From positions 1-24,689 of the IMG/VR virus record IMGVR_UViG_3300049137_000023: a stretch of 24,689 nt of DNA. One strand, given 5' to 3'. This document shows, piece by piece, positions 1 to 14,859 of this stretch (positions are counted from its first letter, which is position 1; each line of letters opens with the position of its first letter). Made by a program: the position numbers and the translations under genes. The stretch is from a virus (lineage: Duplodnaviria > Caudoviricetes). The notes beneath the pieces are model-generated. The model ran no database searches. It was not told the origin of the DNA and was given only the letters and a program-made list of their open reading frames with translations.

Positions 1-305
1 ACCCTGCGGCCCACCTCTTTACGCAGGCAGAGCAAACGGTAAGCCGAACTCCGGAGCCTGCAACCAACACCAGCCGTGGGGACCCGTGGTAGGACTGCCA
101 ACGCTATTGTTTCTGAGGCTGTCCCTTCCCATATACTCGCTATCGGCATTGCTGATGAGCGCTGAACCATTTGGTGCTCGCAATTGCCGCCGCCGCTTCA
201 GACCTTTGACCACGGATGTACTGGCTTTGGGCTTCGAAGCGGCGATGAGGAGAGCCGGTGCAGATTTGCACCCGGTCTTTTCATTCCCAACTGAAAGTCT
301 CTCAT
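1..305 (+). other. Hairpin-dense, apparently non-coding segment (candidate ncRNA or structured leader; 5' end may lie outside the window)
   Basis: Stems read by eye: GCAGGC 23-28/GCCTGC 56-61; 144-189 (CGGCATTGC..GAGCGC/GTGCTC..GCAATTGCCG); CGCCGCTTC 191-199/GAAGCGGCG 236-244; 245-284 (ATGA..CCGGTGCA-GATT-TGCA-C-CCGG..TCAT). G-U pairs favour the + strand. Confidence 0.4.
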
Positions 306-462
306 GAAAAAGACAGATGCCGCGTTCCAGATTAAACGCGCTGAACGACAGGTTACGCTCACGAGTGGCGGGGGTCACCTCGGCGGAACCCTTCATGGCC
401 AAGGCAATGATGCAAAGACGACCGGCGGCGGCGGTAAATCAAGCCGATCCACCAAAAAGTAA
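304..462 (+). CDS. Small 52-aa Gly/Lys-rich hypothetical protein (MKKTDAAFQIKRAERQVTLTSGGGHLGG...SSRSTKK)
   Basis: ATG 304 to TAA 462, below the ORF-track cut-off; followed by an intrinsic terminator at 501-527; no clear SD sequence. Confidence 0.35.
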   Translation: MKKTDAAFQIKRAERQVTLTSGGGHLGGTLHGQGNDAKTTGGGGKSSRSTKK

Positions 463-500
463 CAAGCAAGCCATCAAGCTTTGCAACAAGAGCCCATCAG

Positions 501-527
501 CCCGTCACCACCCGGTGGCGGGTTTTT
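501..527 (+). terminator. Rho-independent terminator
   Basis: CCCGTCACC-ACCC-GGTGGCGGG followed by TTTTT. Confidence 0.7.
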
Positions 528-571
528 CATATCCGCGTCCGGCGGTACCGGACCAACAAAGGAGAAGACGC

Positions 572-823
572 ATGAGCGTACAGGCAATGTTCTACGTGAA
601 AGAGATCAATCACCGCGCTACCAACCAGGCGGACGCCGTGAACGTCGAGATCAAGATGGCTGCCGCGTTCGGTACCTATCTACAAGGCCTGCCGGAAGGC
701 AATGGCGACTGGTCGAAGTGGACGCCGACTGGCGAGCTTTCCATCACCATCACGAACCCGGCAGCCATCGAGCAGTTCGAGATCGGCGGCGTCTATTCGC
801 TGACCTTCGAGAAGGCGGCCTAG
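572..823 (+). CDS. Phage hypothetical protein, 83 aa (MSVQAMFYVKEI...WSKWTPTGELSITITNPAA...YSLTFEKAA)
   Basis: Strong SD AAGGAGA upstream of ATG 572; phage-like codon usage. The 317 start in the track is an upstream extension across a terminator. Confidence 0.85.
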   Translation: MSVQAMFYVKEINHRATNQADAVNVEIKMAAAFGTYLQGLPEGNGDWSKWTPTGELSITITNPAAIEQFEIGGVYSLTFEKAA

Positions 824-856
824 ACTTCGTCGGGCTCGATCTGAGGAGCCGGAAAA

Positions 857-892
857 TCAAAAAGGAAAGGCGCCGACCCGAAGGCCGACGCC
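857..892 (-). terminator. Rho-independent terminator of the minus-strand peptide unit
   Basis: Minus strand reads GGCGTCGGCC-TTCG-GGTCGGCGCC-TTTCCTTTTTGA (UUCG tetraloop plus U-tract), 5 nt after the stop at 898. Confidence 0.8.
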
Positions 893-897
893 ATGCA

Positions 898-990
898 TCA
901 AAGCAGGACTTTCAAAATCGCCGCGATGCCGAATAGGCACGGGGCGAGATTGAGCGTGATGTTGACGCGGATCGTGGTTCTTTTCCACAT
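898..990 (-). CDS. 30-aa basic-then-hydrophobic peptide MWKRTTIRVNITLNLAPCLFGIAAILKVLL; candidate type I toxin-like membrane peptide
   Basis: SD-like GAGGG about 8 nt before ATG 990; hydrophobic C-terminal helix; terminator directly downstream; promoter-like motif at 1268-1296. Confidence 0.6.
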   Translation of the reverse strand: MWKRTTIRVNITLNLAPCLFGIAAILKVLL

Positions 991-1261
991 AGGTAAAGCC
1001 CTCGATCCCGTGCGCACGGAACCAAAAGGTTTCGTGAAGCATGCCTGCCGGAACGGTTTTCCCGCCGTTCGCAGGGGCATCGGTCTACCTTCCGCGACTG
1101 CAGTTCGCATTCAGTAGGTCCCGGTAGTCTCCTGTCCAGGTTCGCTTGGTCGAGTTGGGCCCTGCCCAAAGCGACGGCTACAGCCTTTCAGGCCGGGCCC
1201 TGAGGGTGGCCCTAGGAGGGTCGGTGTGACTAGCAGCCGGTTCCATCGGGGGCCCAGGGGC
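991..1261 (-). promoter_or_regulatory. ~270-nt highly structured 5' leader (putative translational control element)
   Basis: Hairpins at 1015-1036, 1041-1080, 1094-1108, 1142-1174 and around 1183-1213. On the minus strand, AGGTAGACCGAT (1090-1079) can pair with ATCGAGGGCTTTACCT (1006-991), covering the SD. Confidence 0.5.
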
Positions 1262-1267
1262 AAAGGT

Positions 1268-1296
1268 ACTGTGACATGCAGTCTACATTTTCGCAA
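1268..1296 (-). promoter_or_regulatory. Putative sigma70 promoter for the structured-leader/peptide transcript
   Basis: Minus strand TTGCGA-N17-CACAGT; predicted TSS near 1261. Confidence 0.45.
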
Positions 1297-1899
1297 CGGC
1301 CCGTCCCCACGGAAGATATGCTCGAAGACACCAGCATCCGGTTTGAGCCCGCGCTCGATCTGGTAGAGTGGGCTCGATCCACCTTCATCGACGAGACAGC
1401 CGACCTCCTGAACGAGGATCATGCTCATCTCCGGTTCGCCTCGATCGGCGCACTCTGGACGAACGCCCCGAATGGTCGCCACGGCCGCCGGGTAATCGGC
1501 CAATGCGAAATGGGATTGCCTCCAGCTGGCAAATGGTCGCGCGCTCGCATCGAGCTTCAGTTGCAGACATGGTTCGGTGACGTGCCGGACTTCCTCCTGA
1601 CCTTCGATGCTCATTATGCATCTGTATGTTCGGACACAGAGTTCTGCGCCCTGGTCGAGCATGAGCTTTATCATGCAGGGCAAGAGCAAGGACCATTCGG
1701 TCCGAAGTTCCGGAAGGACGGAAGGCCAGCCTTCGCAATGCGTGGGCATGACGTGGAAGAGTTCATCGGTGTTGTACGTCGCTATGGGGCTGATGCTGCC
1801 AATGTTCGTGCACTGGTCGATGCAGCAAACAGGCCTCCGGAAATCTCCCGGGCGAGCATCGGTCATGTATGCGGGACGTGTCAGTTGCGTGTCGCCTAA
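1276..1899 (+). CDS. Putative phage metallopeptidase (HExxH)
   Basis: 'CALVEHELYHAGQ' zinc-binding motif plus 'GHDVEEF.GVVRRYG', typical of the phage metallopeptidase family found next to terminase genes; alternative start at 1318. Confidence 0.85.
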   Translation: MQSTFSQRPVPTEDMLEDTSIRFEPALDLVEWARSTFIDETADLLNEDHAHLRFASIGALWTNAPNGRHGRRVIGQCEMGLPPAGKWSRARIELQLQTWFGDVPDFLLTFDAHYASVCSDTEFCALVEHELYHAGQEQGPFGPKFRKDGRPAFAMRGHDVEEFIGVVRRYGADAANVRALVDAANRPPEISRASIGHVCGTCQLRVA

Positions 1900-1923
1900 A
1901 CCTGAAGGCATCCTGATAGTTCG

Positions 1924-2385
1924 ATGGCAAAAGCGAAACTCACTCGCGAGCAACAAACCTTTGTTGTGCAATCGCTCGCATGCTTCGATTCCCCGACTGT
2001 CGTAGCTGCCGCACTCAGGAAGGAATATTCGGTCACGCTGACGCCGCAATCGATCGAGGCATATGACCCGACGAAGAAAGCCGGCAAGAACCTCGCCGAT
2101 CGATGGAAAGCCATCTTCGAGGAGACGCGCAAGACCTTTCTTGAGGACACCGCATCGATAGCCATCAGTCACCGGGCGGTGAGATTGCGTGCTCTCCAGC
2201 GCATGGCCGACAAGGCAGAGAACCAAGGAAACATGGTGTTGGCATCTTCGCTGCTGAAGCAGGCGGCTGAGGAAGTAGGCAACGCTTACACCAACAAGCG
2301 AGAAATCTCCGGCCCAGGAGGTGGAGCAATCAAGACCGAAACGCGAACCTGGCGGGAGGTTCTAAGGGACGAGGGTAAGGAGTGA
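1924..2385 (+). CDS. terS: Terminase small subunit (DUF2280-like)
   Basis: N-terminal 'FVVQSLACFDSPTVVA' and C-terminal 'EISGPGGGAIK' motifs; overlaps the TerL start. Confidence 0.85.
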   Translation: MAKAKLTREQQTFVVQSLACFDSPTVVAAALRKEYSVTLTPQSIEAYDPTKKAGKNLADRWKAIFEETRKTFLEDTASIAISHRAVRLRALQRMADKAENQGNMVLASSLLKQAAEEVGNAYTNKREISGPGGGAIKTETRTWREVLRDEGKE

Positions 2386-3803
2386 ATGCGCACGTCTCGC
2401 TGACCAACCCTGCGTTATTCGGCTTCTGGGAGAAAGTGTTCCTCGGCAAAGCTGATATCGCGGTCCTTCATGGAGGGCGGTCCAGCTCCAAGACGCGCGA
2501 TACGGCGTGCCAATTGGTTCGCTTGATCGACCATTTGTCCGTGAAGATGCGTGTTCTATGCATCCGTCGGTTCCAGAACCGAATTCAGGAATCGGTCTAC
2601 ACCGAGCTGAAGTGGGCGATTGACCATCTCGGGCTAAAGGGCGCTTTCGACGTCCAGAAGACGACGATCATCCACATCGCGTCGGGCTCGGAGTTCATAT
2701 TCTACGGCATCGAGCGCAACCTTGAGGAAATCAAGGGCACGTCCGATATCGACATCCTCTGGGTGGAAGAGGCGGAGAAGCTTACCGAGGAGCAGTGGTC
2801 AGTCATCGCGCCGACGATCCGCAAGGAAGACAGTCTCGCGATCCTGCTGTTCAATCCGAAGTTCGTCACCGACTACGTCTGGAAGAACTTCGTCATCAAC
2901 ACGCCACCTCACTGTGTGGTGCATCAGATCAATTATACGGAGAACCCGTTCCTTTCCGAGAAGGCGAAGCGCGACATAGCAGCGATGCAAGAGCGCGACC
3001 CGGAGATGTTCGAACACATCTACGGCGGCGTTCCCCTCGGAGACAGTGAGCTATCGATCTTCAAGCGCCGCTGGCTCGAAGCCTGTGTGGATGCTCACAA
3101 GGTCCTGAAGATCGAGCTGACCGGCCGGAACATCATCGGTTTCGACCCAGCCGACGACGGCGAGGACAAGAGCGCGACAGCCGACAAGATCGACGGCGTC
3201 TTCACTGATGCTGAAGACTGGTCATCGGGGAAGGATCAGCTCGTCCAGAATGCCAAGCGGGTATGGGCGAAGGCGAAGAACGCCGGCGCGACGGTCTCTT
3301 ACGACACGATCGGCGTGGGTGCGTTTGTCGGCGGCTACATCGACGAGCAGAACCAGGAGAACGACGCCAGCGTCGAGCACTTCGCATTCCATGCCGGCGG
3401 CGGGGTCATGGATCCTGACAAGCCGAGCGATGCGCTGAACGACAACAGCCCGCTGAACAAGGACGAGTATCTGAACCTGAAGGCGCAGGCCTGGGCCAAC
3501 ACGGCCCGCAAGGCGATGCTCACGTTCAATGCTGTGACGCGAGGCCAGTCGATCAAGCCTGAGGACGTGCTCTCGTTCTCGTCGGAGATGGGCAAGGAAA
3601 AGCTCGAGGCTCTCTTCACTGAGCTTTGCGTGCCGTGGTGGGTTGAGACTGAAGGCAAGAAGCGCGTCGTCCCGAAACTGAAGCTCAAGAAGGACTTGGG
3701 CGTCAAGTCGCACAACCTCGCTGATGCGGTCATCGCGGCCGACAACGTCAATATCGACGTAGGCCCAACCGTGGCGATGTTCCTGAGGAAGAAACACCGA
3801 TGA
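2382..3803 (+). CDS. terL: Terminase large subunit, PBSX family
   Basis: Walker A HGGRSSSKT, Walker B ILWVEEAE, 'LLFNP' coupling motif, nuclease motif 'IIGFDPADDGED'. Confidence 0.95.
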   Translation: MNAHVSLTNPALFGFWEKVFLGKADIAVLHGGRSSSKTRDTACQLVRLIDHLSVKMRVLCIRRFQNRIQESVYTELKWAIDHLGLKGAFDVQKTTIIHIASGSEFIFYGIERNLEEIKGTSDIDILWVEEAEKLTEEQWSVIAPTIRKEDSLAILLFNPKFVTDYVWKNFVINTPPHCVVHQINYTENPFLSEKAKRDIAAMQERDPEMFEHIYGGVPLGDSELSIFKRRWLEACVDAHKVLKIELTGRNIIGFDPADDGEDKSATADKIDGVFTDAEDWSSGKDQLVQNAKRVWAKAKNAGATVSYDTIGVGAFVGGYIDEQNQENDASVEHFAFHAGGGVMDPDKPSDALNDNSPLNKDEYLNLKAQAWANTARKAMLTFNAVTRGQSIKPEDVLSFSSEMGKEKLEALFTELCVPWWVETEGKKRVVPKLKLKKDLGVKSHNLADAVIAADNVNIDVGPTVAMFLRKKHR

Positions 3804-5179
3804 ACAACGTTGTCCGCTTCGTCGGGAACCGAGCCTATCGCAGCATCAATACCATCTTCGGTGGCATCTTTGCGGGCGCATCCACGAAGCACGATCACTT
3901 CAAGGATTTCGGCTATCCGGACATCCTGACGTTCGAGCAGCTTCACCGGATGTACATGCGGAACGGCATTGCCGCCGCTGGCGTCAACAAGACCGTCGGC
4001 AAGACCTGGCAGGACAATCCGTTCTTGCTCGAGCAGGAGCGCGACGGGTCGCAAACCGGCGAAGACGAGGAAACGACGCTCGAAGCCGAGATCCGCCAGC
4101 GTTTCGACGATCTTCGCCTCTGGGCGCGGCTTTCCGAAGCAGACCGCATGTCGATGGTCGGTCGGTACGCTGGTGTCATCCTCCGTTTCGCCGACAGCAA
4201 ACGATTTGATCAGCCAGTTGACCGCGTGAATGGCGGTCTCGACGGCCTGATCGAAGTAATCCCTGCATGGGAAGGGCAGTTGCAGGTGAGCGAGTGGGAT
4301 ACGGACCAAACGTCCGAGACCTACGGCGAACCGACGATGTTCCAGTTCAACGAATCTGCGGTAGGGGACGCAAAGCAGCCACGGAGCATCAGGATCCATC
4401 CCGACCGGGTCATCATCTGGTCGCGCGACGGAACCGTGAACTGCACGTCGGCTCTTGAGCCCGGTTATAACTCCCTCGTCGACCTGGAGAAGGTGAGGGG
4501 CGCCGGCGGCGAAGGCTTCTGGAAAAACGCCAAGTCTGCACCGGTCCTTGAGATGGATAAGGAAGCAGATCCCAAGAAGATGGCCACGGCCATGGGGATC
4601 AAGATCGAAGACCTGGCCGACAAGATGAACGACCAGGTCGCCGACTATAACGCCGGCTTCGACCAGCTTCTCATGCTGATGGGGATGACGGCAAAGCCTC
4701 TGCCCGTCACGCTTCCGTCGCCCGAGCACTTCTTTGCCGTCGCCCTGCAGGACTTCGCCGCATCGATCAACATGCCGGTAAAAATCCTCGTCGGGATGCA
4801 GACAGGCGAGCGGGCAAGCCAGGAAGACGCCGACGAATGGGCGCAGACGAACATGTCGCGCCGCGCAAACCAGACGATCCCGAACATCATGTCGTTTGTG
4901 AAGCGGCTGGAACGAGTCGGCATCCTGCCGAAAATGGACTGGTATCTCGATTGGGCTGACCTGACCGAAGCCTCGATGTCCGAGAAGATCGAGCGCGCCA
5001 ACAAGATGGCCGACACCAATCAGAAGATGGGCAACACCCTCTACGTCTTCACTGACGACGAGATCCGCGCGGCCGTCGGCTACGAGCCGCTTAGCGATGC
5101 GGACAAGTACCGCGACGACGTGAGCGAAGAAGAGCAGGGCGCCGCCGCAGGCAAAACGCCGCCGACCCAAGAGGATTGA
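3800..5179 (+). CDS. Portal protein (DUF1073-like)
   Basis: 459 aa immediately after TerL; motifs 'IHPDRVII' and 'PVKILVGMQTGERAS..D'. Confidence 0.9.
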   Translation: MNNVVRFVGNRAYRSINTIFGGIFAGASTKHDHFKDFGYPDILTFEQLHRMYMRNGIAAAGVNKTVGKTWQDNPFLLEQERDGSQTGEDEETTLEAEIRQRFDDLRLWARLSEADRMSMVGRYAGVILRFADSKRFDQPVDRVNGGLDGLIEVIPAWEGQLQVSEWDTDQTSETYGEPTMFQFNESAVGDAKQPRSIRIHPDRVIIWSRDGTVNCTSALEPGYNSLVDLEKVRGAGGEGFWKNAKSAPVLEMDKEADPKKMATAMGIKIEDLADKMNDQVADYNAGFDQLLMLMGMTAKPLPVTLPSPEHFFAVALQDFAASINMPVKILVGMQTGERASQEDADEWAQTNMSRRANQTIPNIMSFVKRLERVGILPKMDWYLDWADLTEASMSEKIERANKMADTNQKMGNTLYVFTDDEIRAAVGYEPLSDADKYRDDVSEEEQGAAAGKTPPTQED

Positions 5180-9387: not shown

Positions 9388-9417
9388 CTTGCGTATAAAA
9401 ATCCGGCGGACTATAGG
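9388..9417 (+). promoter_or_regulatory. Putative sigma70 promoter giving a leaderless GNAT mRNA
   Basis: CTTGCG-N17-CTATAG, resembling the rhizobial CTTGAC-N17-CTATAT consensus; predicted TSS at or next to ATG 9425; no SD present. Confidence 0.6.
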
Positions 9418-9424
9418 CGCCCGC

Positions 9425-9859
9425 ATGATCGACATTCGAGTTTCCACACCAGAGGATGGCGAGCGTGTGCTAGCAATTTGGCGCGCGGCCGTTGATGCCA
9501 CGCACGATTTTCTAAAGCCGGATGATCGTCTTGAACTCGACGAGATGCTTGAACGCTTCTTAGCTGAAGCGCCGCTCACGCTCGCAGTCGATCATCAGGG
9601 AACTGTGCTAGGCTTCATGTTGGTTGATGAAGGTCACATGGAGGCCCTATTCATCGATCCAGCATACCACGGGAAAGGCATTGGCCGCTTTTTGGTAGAC
9701 GTCGCCCTCAAGGCGAACCCGAACCTGACTACTGACGTCAATGAGCAGAACTCACCGGCAGTCGGATTCTACAAGAAGCTAGGCTTCCGGGAAACCGGGC
9801 GCTCGAAGCTTGACGGGCAGGGCAAGCCTTATCCGTTGATCCACCTACGGCACGATTAG
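9425..9859 (+). CDS. GNAT acetyltransferase, YjaB-like (moron)
   Basis: Motifs 'IWRAAVDATHDFL', 'LFIDPAYHGKGIGR' (acetyl-CoA binding) and 'DVNEQN..AVGFY..LGF...GRS.LDGQG.PYP'. Confidence 0.92.
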   Translation: MIDIRVSTPEDGERVLAIWRAAVDATHDFLKPDDRLELDEMLERFLAEAPLTLAVDHQGTVLGFMLVDEGHMEALFIDPAYHGKGIGRFLVDVALKANPNLTTDVNEQNSPAVGFYKKLGFRETGRSKLDGQGKPYPLIHLRHD

Positions 9860-12934: not shown

Positions 12935-13266
12935 CGGTCACAGCCCGGTACGACAGCATCAAGGACAAGGAAGGTGAGACCCGCCGCGAAAGGAACGAGG
13001 CTTTCGAGGTGGAAAGCCCGGAGCCTGACATTCCGGACGCCGGCGGCATGCTCTGGGATTGGTTTTGGCAGATCAGGGCAGGGCAGGCGTCGGGCTTCAA
13101 CGGTGCCAACCCCGTCTCGCATTCGGAGCTGCTCGCCTGGCTGCAGATCACCGGCAACATCCTCAGGCGGGAGGAAATAGCGGTCCTTCGCGCCATGGAT
13201 TGCCGATATTGCGTTGAGATTGATCGGGAAGCGGAAGCCATCAGGGAGCGAGAGAGCGCGGCTTAG
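12898..13266 (+). CDS. Tail assembly chaperone frameshift extension (gpT analogue)
   Basis: The -1 frame reads YEELGERLCEAV...LWDWFWQIRAGQASGFNGANPVSHSELLAW...EIAVLRAMD; the 13009 ORF in the track is its distal part. Confidence 0.82.
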   Translation, partial: YEELGERLCEAVAVTARYDSIKDKEGETRRERNEAFEVESPEPDIPDAGGMLWDWFWQIRAGQASGFNGANPVSHSELLAWLQITGNILRREEIAVLRAMDCRYCVEIDREAEAIRERESAA

Positions 13267-13891
13267 CCTTCAGATCGGAGACCTTCGACTGGATGTGGTC
13301 GGACAGAGCCAAGGCGGCCTCCTGGATTGTTTTTGCTCTCTGGAGATCTTGGTCAGTACCAACGCCGTCTAAAGCATCAATGACTCGGTCGATGTACTTC
13401 TTTCGGGTCTCTAACTTCCGCTCCACCTTGCGTAGCTCAGTAACGTTCGCAGCAGATTCAGCATCGGATCGGAGCGAAAGGAGGATCTGAGGCTCGTCGT
13501 TCAAGAAGGTATATTGCTGTTCCTTCTCGCGCTGGCGCCGAAGTGCTCGTCTGGCTTCTGGAAGCGATTGATTTCGAGGGTTCCTTCCATCGATGCGCCT
13601 TTGACCTTCTTCCATTGCAATGTCTTTAGTCTCGTATGGTTCTGAAAACTCCGGCTCGCGACGGTCATTATGGTCTGCGATGCAGTACTTCCATCCGCCG
13701 TCACTCTCAAAGACGGTCAGCCGCCAGCCCTGATAAGTCGTGGTCGGGTTTCCGCTTTCGGAGGAAACCCATTGCGAGCGGCGTGTCGCGTCCGTTTTGG
13801 AAATCTGTGCATGCTGCAGGGATGAGTTGCGAAGCTTGAGCATGATCCACGCAACAAGCGCGGCGACAGCAAATAATACAACGTATTCCAT
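13241..13891 (-). CDS. Membrane-anchored hypothetical protein, 216 aa
   Basis: SD GGAGGTGG before ATG 13891; N-terminal TM segment YVVLFAVAALVAWIML; aromatic beta-rich domain followed by a helical/coiled C-terminus. Confidence 0.8.
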   Translation of the reverse strand: MEYVVLFAVAALVAWIMLKLRNSSLQHAQISKTDATRRSQWVSSESGNPTTTYQGWRLTVFESDGGWKYCIADHNDRREPEFSEPYETKDIAMEEGQRRIDGRNPRNQSLPEARRALRRQREKEQQYTFLNDEPQILLSLRSDAESAANVTELRKVERKLETRKKYIDRVIDALDGVGTDQDLQRAKTIQEAALALSDHIQSKVSDLKAKPRSLAP

Positions 13892-13962
13892 AATATCCAC
13901 CTCCACCTAAAGGGAAGGAAGCACGGCGGCAACCGGAAGTCGAGTCGGCGTGGACGGTAAAG

Positions 13963-14502
13963 TTAGCCGCCAGATCTGGCTTTATATTTCGCTAAAGCAC
14001 GACCTATAAAATCAACTTTCGCTACAATCATGACGGGGCACGCTTCCCGCTCGCAGTCCGGCGGATGGCTCGGTCGAAGATCATCAGCGCTCATCTTCTG
14101 ATCTCTCATGCGAACGCAACCCGGGCAGTCGTTCGAGATCGTGCTGTACTCGAAGAAGTCAGCATCGATAGTCTCGGCCTTCTCGACTGCGGCGCGGCGC
14201 ATGGCATTGAAGTGAGCGCGGAGGAGGGTAACCTCGTGAGCCTCAAGGGGGCGCCTTAGACCGGCTTCCGACAGTTCGGCTGCTGCGGTTTTGGATAAGA
14301 AGGCGTTCGCCCGAAGCCCCAACGCTTTCTTATCTTCCTTGCCCAGTTGCTCACCGTTCTTCCGGTAAGCCGTCGTTACCGCCCGAGGGTGCAATATAGA
14401 GCAGTCGCTGAGCATCCCAGCAATAGTTTCGACCGCTGATGACCGCAGCAACTTAAGAGAAGATACAGCTTCATGAGCGCTTTGGATGAAAATATCGCTC
14501 AT
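13963..14502 (-). CDS. Hypothetical protein, 179 aa, with a CxxC...CxxxxC putative metal site
   Basis: 'DCPGC' and 'HPPDCEREACP'; SD GAGGTG overlapping the upstream stop. Confidence 0.8.
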   Translation of the reverse strand: MSDIFIQSAHEAVSSLKLLRSSAVETIAGMLSDCSILHPRAVTTAYRKNGEQLGKEDKKALGLRANAFLSKTAAAELSEAGLRRPLEAHEVTLLRAHFNAMRRAAVEKAETIDADFFEYSTISNDCPGCVRMRDQKMSADDLRPSHPPDCEREACPVMIVAKVDFIGRALAKYKARSGG

Positions 14503-14505
14503 GCT

Positions 14506-14805
14506 TCACCTCATCAGATTGAGCATGTCGCGGCAGAGCTGTGGCGTTATTGTTTTCGTATCTACTGATTTCAGTCCGGAAACGATGATCTGCAATTTCT
14601 CCTGTGCTTCCGAATCACTATAGCCCGCCGCCTTTAATCGGCTCGGGGCCTCTGAAATGGCTGCGTCGTACGCATTGGCGTCGCCCGTAACATCCCTACA
14701 CGTGTGGGCTGTGGCAATTTTAACCGCTACCGCTTGGTAGGTGGCTGCTTTGGTGTCGGCTACGGCCACACCAGAAGCGAGCATCAAAAACAAAAGTGTT
14801 CGCAT
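14506..14805 (-). CDS. Secreted/periplasmic hypothetical protein, 99 aa
   Basis: SD AAGGAGG before ATG 14805; signal-peptide-like MRTLLFLMLASGVAVA; two Cys residues. Confidence 0.8.
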   Translation of the reverse strand: MRTLLFLMLASGVAVADTKAATYQAVAVKIATAHTCRDVTGDANAYDAAISEAPSRLKAAGYSDSEAQEKLQIIVSGLKSVDTKTITPQLCRDMLNLMR

Positions 14806-14829
14806 CGAATCCTCCTTCGTGGAGATGGG

Positions 14830-14859
14830 ACGATAGCGCTCGTTCGTGGAAAAGGACAA
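14830..14859 (-). promoter_or_regulatory. Putative sigma70 promoter of the antisense cluster
   Basis: Minus strand TTGTCC-N18-TATCGT; the -35 overlaps the tape measure SD on the + strand. Confidence 0.4.

Follow-up and report, generated by a model that had tools for sequence, protein, structure and literature searches.

A mobile, predicted RNA-controlled gene for a small membrane peptide in Hyphomicrobiales

The window analysed here is the whole of a 24.7-kb virus record (24,689 nt), whose plus strand codes for a phage packaging, head and tail region. Among these genes, on the minus strand, lies a short unit that a preliminary description had read as a self-contained type I toxin-like gene, possibly borne by a prophage and missed by annotation.

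Anatomy of the unit

The claimed promoter site, leader, Shine-Dalgarno sequence, 30-aa ORF and terminator could all be located at the stated positions on the minus strand, in the following arrangement:

1268..1296, minus strand: candidate sigma-70 promoter (-35 TTGCGA at 1296-1291, 17 nt, -10 CACAGT at 1273-1268)
1133..1261, minus strand: 5' part of the leader, of variable sequence (folding z -0.87)
1082..1121, minus strand: two-tier hairpin P2/P3, with covariation
1097..1104, minus strand: palindrome 1 in the P3 loop (core CTGCAG at 1103-1098), a predicted kissing site
1051..1084, minus strand: conserved junction (CCG at 1083-1081) and hairpin P4/P5; a pseudoknot is predicted between the junction and the loop of this hairpin (CGG at 1064-1062)
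1015..1036, minus strand: hairpin A:B (1036-1028 with 1023-1015), which competes with the ribosome-site hairpin
999..1029, minus strand: hairpin B:C over the ribosome site, its tip being palindrome 2 (1019-1008, 12 nt)
999..1003, minus strand: Shine-Dalgarno sequence GAGGG, 8 nt before the ATG at 990
898..990, minus strand: ORF of the 30-aa peptide (P0001), in which 974-969 can pair back with 1009-1003
857..892, minus strand: intrinsic terminator (hairpin 892-869, 10 pairs, plus U-tract)
572..823, plus strand: phage gene phrog_6978, a flank that converges on the unit
1276..3803, plus strand: phage metallopeptidase, DUF2280 and terminase large subunit genes, a flank that diverges from the unit

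Transcription is predicted to start near 1261 on the minus strand, downstream of the candidate promoter, and would render a single RNA of about 400 nt holding the folded leader, the peptide ORF and the terminator. The same layout was found in about 50 relatives selected by their peptide, mostly from Hyphomicrobiales, which bears out the reading of a self-contained unit. The recurrence of start, ribosome site, stop and terminator across these relatives indicates more than chance, and terminator-like sites were detected in 29/49 and 18/49 copies in two bins after the stop. The promoter stood only in part: the sequence is present at its site and the relatives carry a motif at the same distance, but it is weak, and a generic scan of positions 1-3000 detected none. 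The promoter-like motif falls in two adjacent 25-nt bins in 14/49 and 22/49 copies (0-6 in other upstream bins) and the site in the window has the second-best score of its region, this positional support being partly circular since the matrix was set after the relatives had been inspected. An ORF of 70 aa (1110-898) was rejected as the real gene because in many copies the reading frame is closed upstream of the conserved ATG, within 20-45 codons of the cysteine.

Elsewhere in the window, within the phage record, the Rfam small RNA ar35 was detected at 142-285 of the plus strand (113 bits), with a 52-aa Gly/Lys-rich ORF of no family (304-462) and a terminator-like site (499-524) 3' of it. A GNAT acetyltransferase gene among the head-completion genes (9389-9859, plus strand), as well as three ORFs without Pfam family between the tail chaperone and tape measure genes (13241-14859, minus strand), are likely accessory.

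The peptide family

The searches gave 11 viral loci, 38 genome loci and 3 plasmid records, with 4 further viral loci found by a leader pattern and more from a sample of the order, and 54 copies were kept after same-record repeats and near-identical leaders had been dropped; L049 (at a contig edge) and L051 (with a stop inside the ORF) lie outside this set. The range is patchy: of 400 genomes sampled from the order Hyphomicrobiales, to which most of the named hosts belong, 7 have the unit. Three metagenome bins assigned to other phyla may owe this to mis-binning. A profile search among 1.84 billion representatives rendered 120 clusters at E 0.001, nearly all of them showing the same short motif, with gene-caller extensions in some.

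All 54 peptides are 28-35 aa long, have a net charge of +1 to +7 and a best 19-residue hydropathy of at least 1.6, and the common build is a basic start, a stretch of about 9 strictly alternating hydrophobic and polar residues, and a hydrophobic end. AlphaFold places a helix at residues 15-29 only (mean pLDDT 63), the N-terminal half having no confident model. As modelled, the peptide is an alternating, strand-like segment followed by a hydrophobic helix of 15 residues, which is short for a bilayer, and not a single long amphipathic helix. The peptide is conserved: homologues were found, and synonymous change (pS 0.38-0.89) exceeds non-synonymous change (pN 0.05-0.24) between the window copy and nine close relatives. 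The apparent invariance of its core is partly due to the core having been the search word for the genome loci, and leader-selected copies are more varied than word-selected ones.

No library scanned recognises the peptide gene, in agreement with the suggestion that annotation overlooks it. The window peptide has no match in Pfam or PHROGs, while 42 family members gave none in NCBIfam and only five single weak ones in Pfam; PDB sequences yielded chance matches only, Rfam no match to the RNA of the unit, and annotated phages no match to its DNA. The best ESM Atlas score (0.83) led to clusters without names and is taken as a lead only. A lipoprotein was rejected on inspection because a hydrophobic signal region is lacking and the residue before the cysteine varies. 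On balance, the putative toxicity of this 30-aa membrane peptide seems probable. At L001, a homologous ORF (4112-4204) is labelled 'PDC-198 beta-lactamase, 100% identity' in a plasmid database, a resistance annotation that is spurious for an ORF of 93 bp.

Structure of the leader

The leaders of the 54 copies comprise 42 with one scaffold, 7 with a second scaffold bearing the same two loops, and 5 with none recognisable. Peptides without the leader were observed at L011, L046, L038, L020 and L027; at L011 and L046 the peptide lies directly behind another gene, and the downstream protein is common to both. The preliminary description had proposed about 270 nt of nested hairpins. Covarying helices support this for the last ~140 nt, but the leader alone is not more stable than shuffles (z -1.27). 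The whole unit reaches z -3.11, and only the part from 1040 to 960 is clearly structured (z -4.0). The sequence of the first ~130 nt is poorly conserved; within it, 1259-1253 can pair with 1204-1198 as a closing helix, which was noted on visual inspection of aligned copies and left uncounted. In the 42 copies of the main scaffold, 94% of the cells of P2 and 97% of those of P3 are paired, with two-sided change at every pair, and the candidate pseudoknot of 3-4 bp between junction and loop is paired in 90%, with two-sided changes at two of four pairs; the alignment was made on sequence only, and the structure was chosen from the same sequences, which favours it.

Closer to the ORF, segment B can pair either upstream (A:B) or downstream, over the ribosome site (B:C), and segment C can pair into the ORF (C:D). 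The conservation of the B:C hairpin and the C:D helix predicts that the ribosome site is sequestered by mRNA structure. A:B and C:D are each more stable than shuffles in 49/49 copies, and together they beat B:C in 49/49 monomers; the conserved B:C hairpin therefore needs another reason to exist.

Palindromic loops and predicted dimers

Two of the loops are palindromic. As counted by automatic folding (n=41, one of the 42 copies lacking the anchor), palindrome 1 is a perfect 6-nt palindrome in 29/41 copies, which use 17 hexamers and all four possible central dinucleotides, and it is self-complementary through 9 different central tetramers; palindrome 2 is palindromic in 41/41, with six central tetramers. 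The control loops, those of P5 and of the terminator, have a palindrome in 1/41 each, and shuffled loops gave a mean of 4.4 and a maximum of 10 palindromic copies (n=41). In the second scaffold, palindrome 1 is found in 6/7 copies and palindrome 2 in 7/7. An independent metagenome scan, with a query of the junction and P5 alone, free of palindromes and peptide, rendered at least 121 loci, at least 102 of them distinct; among the matches listed, 27 carry family peptides, with palindrome 1 in 27/27 and palindrome 2 in 25/27, against a background palindrome rate of 0.0125 per position. Within a single strand the central bases have no way of pairing, and a site bound by a protein would be expected to retain its sequence, which points to pairing between RNA molecules. 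Judged from the sequences, it is very likely that the leader pairs intermolecularly, in predicted dimers.

In folding models of the A-to-D segment, taken as one strand or two, which being of the nearest-neighbour type cannot model kissing or pseudoknots, the ribosome site is paired with its anti-site in 5/49 monomers, 29/49 dimers and 11/49 dimers with permuted centres, and the gain on dimerisation is larger than that of the control in 40/49 copies. The remaining 20/49 copies fail to lock the ribosome site as dimers; in the window copy and in L001 and L002, the two relatives closest to it, a strong C:D helix prevents the switch.

Mobile carriers

The neighbour scan covered 50 loci, with 123 of 139 ORFs submitted. 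In 9/50 the unit lies 3' of an IS1595-family transposase gene, on the same strand; terminal inverted repeats of 19-32 bp were found in 7 of these 9 loci and 8-bp target duplications in 4. Such elements, of 2.3-3.1 kb, hold the transposase, the unit, one variable ORF and nothing else, so that the unit is a passenger between the transposase and the right end, whereas the window copy is phage-borne. Five other loci adjoin phage packaging genes, and several adjoin integrases or resolvases. The unit had been thought to be prophage-borne: this is true of the packaging-region copies, that of the window included, but its carriage by IS1595 elements as well makes it a passenger of unrelated mobile elements.

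Some features of these neighbourhoods deserve mention. At L037, L039, L042, L050, L086, L087, L022 and L024, a second frame overlaps the end of the IS1595 transposase gene and codes, by eye, for a 25-40-aa Lys/Arg-rich peptide ending at the promoter of the unit, which may be a frameshift tail or an RNA-binding micro-protein. Downstream of the unit, L036, L043, L044, L050, L086 and L087 carry related passenger proteins of 160-210 aa (about 24% identity, no Pfam family), and at L002 a HipA-like kinase gene (3275-4246) lies directly 3' of the terminator.

Copies without the reading frame

A covariance model of the leader rendered matches in 21 of 150 further genomes, of the family of G003; none has a family peptide and all keep the core, most of them continuing for 150-210 nt to a related terminator in housekeeping-gene surroundings. 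With those found by pattern, the ORF-less set comprises 34 loci in all, further ones coming from the order and from metagenomes; one leader-pattern search was a letter off the commonest form, which makes for an undercount, and L116 was rejected as a chance match. A class-wide search for the RNA gave 0/151, with about 22 candidates scored per genome and no positive control. Among the metagenome matches listed, about a third (33/92 with enough flank, classified by rule, some by chance) are ORF-less, and in some metagenome loci the ORF region is deleted outright.

ORF-less copies keep A:B, the near-invariant core and a structured spacer. By eye (n=34), 15 of them have a perfect palindrome in loop 1, 10 a partial palindrome or one with wobble pairs, and the other 9 a GNRA-like tetraloop, and palindrome 2 is lost with the ORF (present in 7/34, versus 42/42 coding copies). 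Decayed traces of the ORF at the DNA level, of at least 5 bits, were detected in 7/47 ORF-less copies and in 0/47 of both controls, which points to ORF loss. Trees mix ORF-less with coding copies, with 3 changes in one tree and 9 in another; the starred branches force 2 changes, and a single origin of the ORF-less copies is not rejected (p-AU 0.108). ORF loss is thus likely, and repeated loss possible. Leaders are intact and peptide ORFs broken or run-on at L051, L167, L190, L217 and L236, possible early stages of such loss. A word resembling the DnaA box precedes 28/34 ORF-less promoters, and coding promoters have GANTC, the CcrM site, in 26/42. Both kinds of copy occur together in one genome, which has two that code for the peptide and a single ORF-less one. 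Since full-length ORF-less copies are common on chromosomes, the RNA itself appears to be selected.

Expression

RNA evidence came from 8 of the 24 listed runs, as contigs that carry no strand or end information and may include DNA carry-over. In L003, a relative that shares about 80% identity with the window in the conserved part, six such contigs, drawn from the RNA libraries of four studies, fall entirely within the predicted unit (2819-3160 of about 2800-3200) and hint weakly at its expression. In run X10 the L003 unit is uncovered, and X19 leaves the L003 reference at 3200; uncovered flanks are no evidence here because those of the sequenced organism may differ from L003. Four contigs, from four studies, end at L003 3087-3099, 15-27 nt into the ORF, which could be a processing site or merely an assembly break.

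A model of self-silencing and its alternatives

The layout and the relatives support the reading of a mobile, predicted RNA-controlled gene for a small membrane peptide. The explanation we favour, although tentatively, is that of a toxin module akin to type I in which the mRNA, by forming dimers, would silence itself and serve as its own antitoxin. A single molecule would fold into A:B and C:D and leave the ribosome site partly open. As long as the element is present and transcribed, RNA copies would meet by kissing at palindrome 1, and palindrome 2 would then zip up as a duplex of two strands, in which the ribosome site is bound to its anti-site and which would be a suitable substrate for RNase III. 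Should the element be lost or its transcription stop, leftover monomers would become open to translation, and damage done to the inner membrane by the peptide would result in addiction or abortive infection. Chromosomal ORF-less copies would be domesticated versions that have been disarmed. The unrelated mobile carriers and the patchy range fit an addiction module; the step of monomer release is weakened by the fact that stable duplexes are not readily separated. Against the model stand the 20/49 copies, that of the window included, whose modelled dimers do not lock the ribosome site, the five peptide copies with no recognisable leader, and the shortness of the hydrophobic helix. Nor could ORF-less copies that lack palindrome 2 lock partners in the same way, and in 9/34 of the ORF-less set a GNRA-like tetraloop stands in place of loop 1.

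It could also be the case, although we consider it rather doubtful, that the unit is a one-RNA toxin-antitoxin system in which the mRNA counts its own copies and dimers are silent. The variable loop letters would then set compatibility groups between mobile elements, and hosts would time and again acquire ORF-less copies whose RNA acts as a standing decoy, pairing with the toxin mRNAs of incoming elements.

The type I reading of the preliminary description was sustained as regards the mRNA, but the defining antisense antitoxin was sought and not found, which is why a type I-like mRNA with a putative toxin is not filed here as a type I system. No flanking repeat marks an antitoxin acting in trans (repeats of at least 11 nt in 1.2-kb flanks, 23 versus 20 with swapped flanks), no Rfam RNA other than tRNAs lies beside 20 relatives, and no separate antitoxin gene was found in the IS copies of 2.3-3.1 kb; ar35 was rejected as antitoxin, being absent beside 20/20 relatives. 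It is unlikely, in our estimation, that the unit is a conventional type I system, in which an overlapping antisense RNA, made from a promoter inside the ORF or by read-through, would silence the mRNA and the palindromes would aid only folding or decay. The classic layout speaks for it, as do antisense promoter-like sites inside the ORF, at +25 to +49, in 12/49 copies (up to 9 in other bins), with a sub-threshold site at 962 in the window. Moreover, between 823 and 1276 of the window there is no terminator-like site on the plus strand, and in prophages the late transcript would run antisense to the unit. However, this promoter signal is largely accounted for by Val-Asn/Lys codons, shifts between copies and is barely above background, antisense terminators were found in none of the 49 copies, and a cis-antisense RNA needs no palindrome.

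Still less probable is that the dimer-forming RNA is the working part, in the manner of OLE, ROOL, GOLLD and ARRPOF, and the peptide an accessory without toxicity, for instance a partner of the RNA or its anchor in the membrane. The frequency of full-length ORF-less copies in genomes and metagenomes would argue for it, together with their near-invariant core and structured spacer, the genome with both kinds of copy, and the swap of the loop to GNRA, which suggests a tertiary contact. Against it, the traces of the ORF point to its loss, and coding copies keep an elaborate switch at the ribosome site, which is what one would expect if the product were harmful. Least likely of all is a leader acting as a sensor that switches translation on, in which a ligand, a protein or dimerisation itself (through rising copy number in phage replication or transposition) would favour the pseudoknot and the open fold, as in timP: the candidate pseudoknot has conserved junction bases, timP is activated by a pseudoknot and long-range pairing without processing (PMC13000454), and the GANTC and DnaA-like words hint at replication coupling, but the modelled dimers close the ribosome site rather than open it, the core never precedes an unrelated gene in the viral scan (11/11 with the peptide), and it does so only once, by eye, among the metagenome matches listed (L154, likely a rearrangement).

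Comparison with known systems

The unit adds a peptide family and a structured RNA, both uncatalogued, in Hyphomicrobiales, for which the literature searched describes no type I system; in open papers, and with the proviso that toxin databases and motif supplements may list it, neither the peptide, the RNA, a self-dimerising toxin mRNA nor an RNA module borne by IS1595 was found described. If dimers control translation, the concentration of this bacterial mRNA would itself regulate it, and no separate antitoxin would be involved. It would also become clear how a 2.4-kb insertion sequence can carry addiction, and the unit would be a case of an mRNA that has given rise to a conserved noncoding RNA on chromosomes. 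It would also offer a direct test of the purpose of natural RNA multimers, with the loop variants as ready-made specificity controls.

The nearest known system is perhaps timPR of enterobacteria, whose TimP mRNA (formerly RyfA) is described in PMC13000454 and PMC11228461 as a stand-alone mRNA first taken for a noncoding RNA. Both share a multi-hairpin leader, a pseudoknot, a ribosome-site hairpin, an alternative long-range pairing and a small membrane peptide. They differ in that timPR has the separate antitoxin TimR and another host order, and in that the unit is carried by IS1595 elements and prophages. The terms 'dimer' and 'palindrom' do not occur in PMC11228461, and no TimP or TimR homology was detected with the library models of Rfam, Pfam and NCBIfam.

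Membrane-associated type I toxins are, according to PMC8309996, shorter than 60 aa, hydrophobic and cationic, with a conserved cysteine and a sequestered ribosome site. The unit resembles TisB, ZorO, DinQ, AapA, Hok and Fst/Ldr in its small hydrophobic cationic peptide with a conserved cysteine and in the predicted sequestration of its ribosome site; type I toxins have one transmembrane helix and an antisense RNA, whereas this peptide has the alternating segment before its helix. The Fst/Ldr motif A-P-x-x-x-G can be read in the window peptide, but the proline is present in only 9/54 copies, and the Fst/Ldr Pfam models matched none of 42 members at E 5.

With regard to the RNA, OLE, ROOL, GOLLD and ARRPOF form homodimers through kissing loops and palindromic pairing (PMC12990946). 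These are catalogued noncoding RNAs, whereas the RNA of the unit usually encodes a peptide and has a palindrome over its ribosome site; Rfam matched none of the four here. In retroviruses, the dimer initiation site has a 6-nt palindromic loop that is flanked by purines and borne on a short stem, with letters that differ from one lineage to another. It serves as an analogy only, the unit being a bacterial mRNA with no known packaging role.

As for the carriers, toxin-antitoxin systems on transposons (Tn3) and chromosomal anti-addiction copies have been described (PMC12548467). Transporter elements of the IS1595 family are like the carriers of the unit in having a passenger module between the transposase and the right end.
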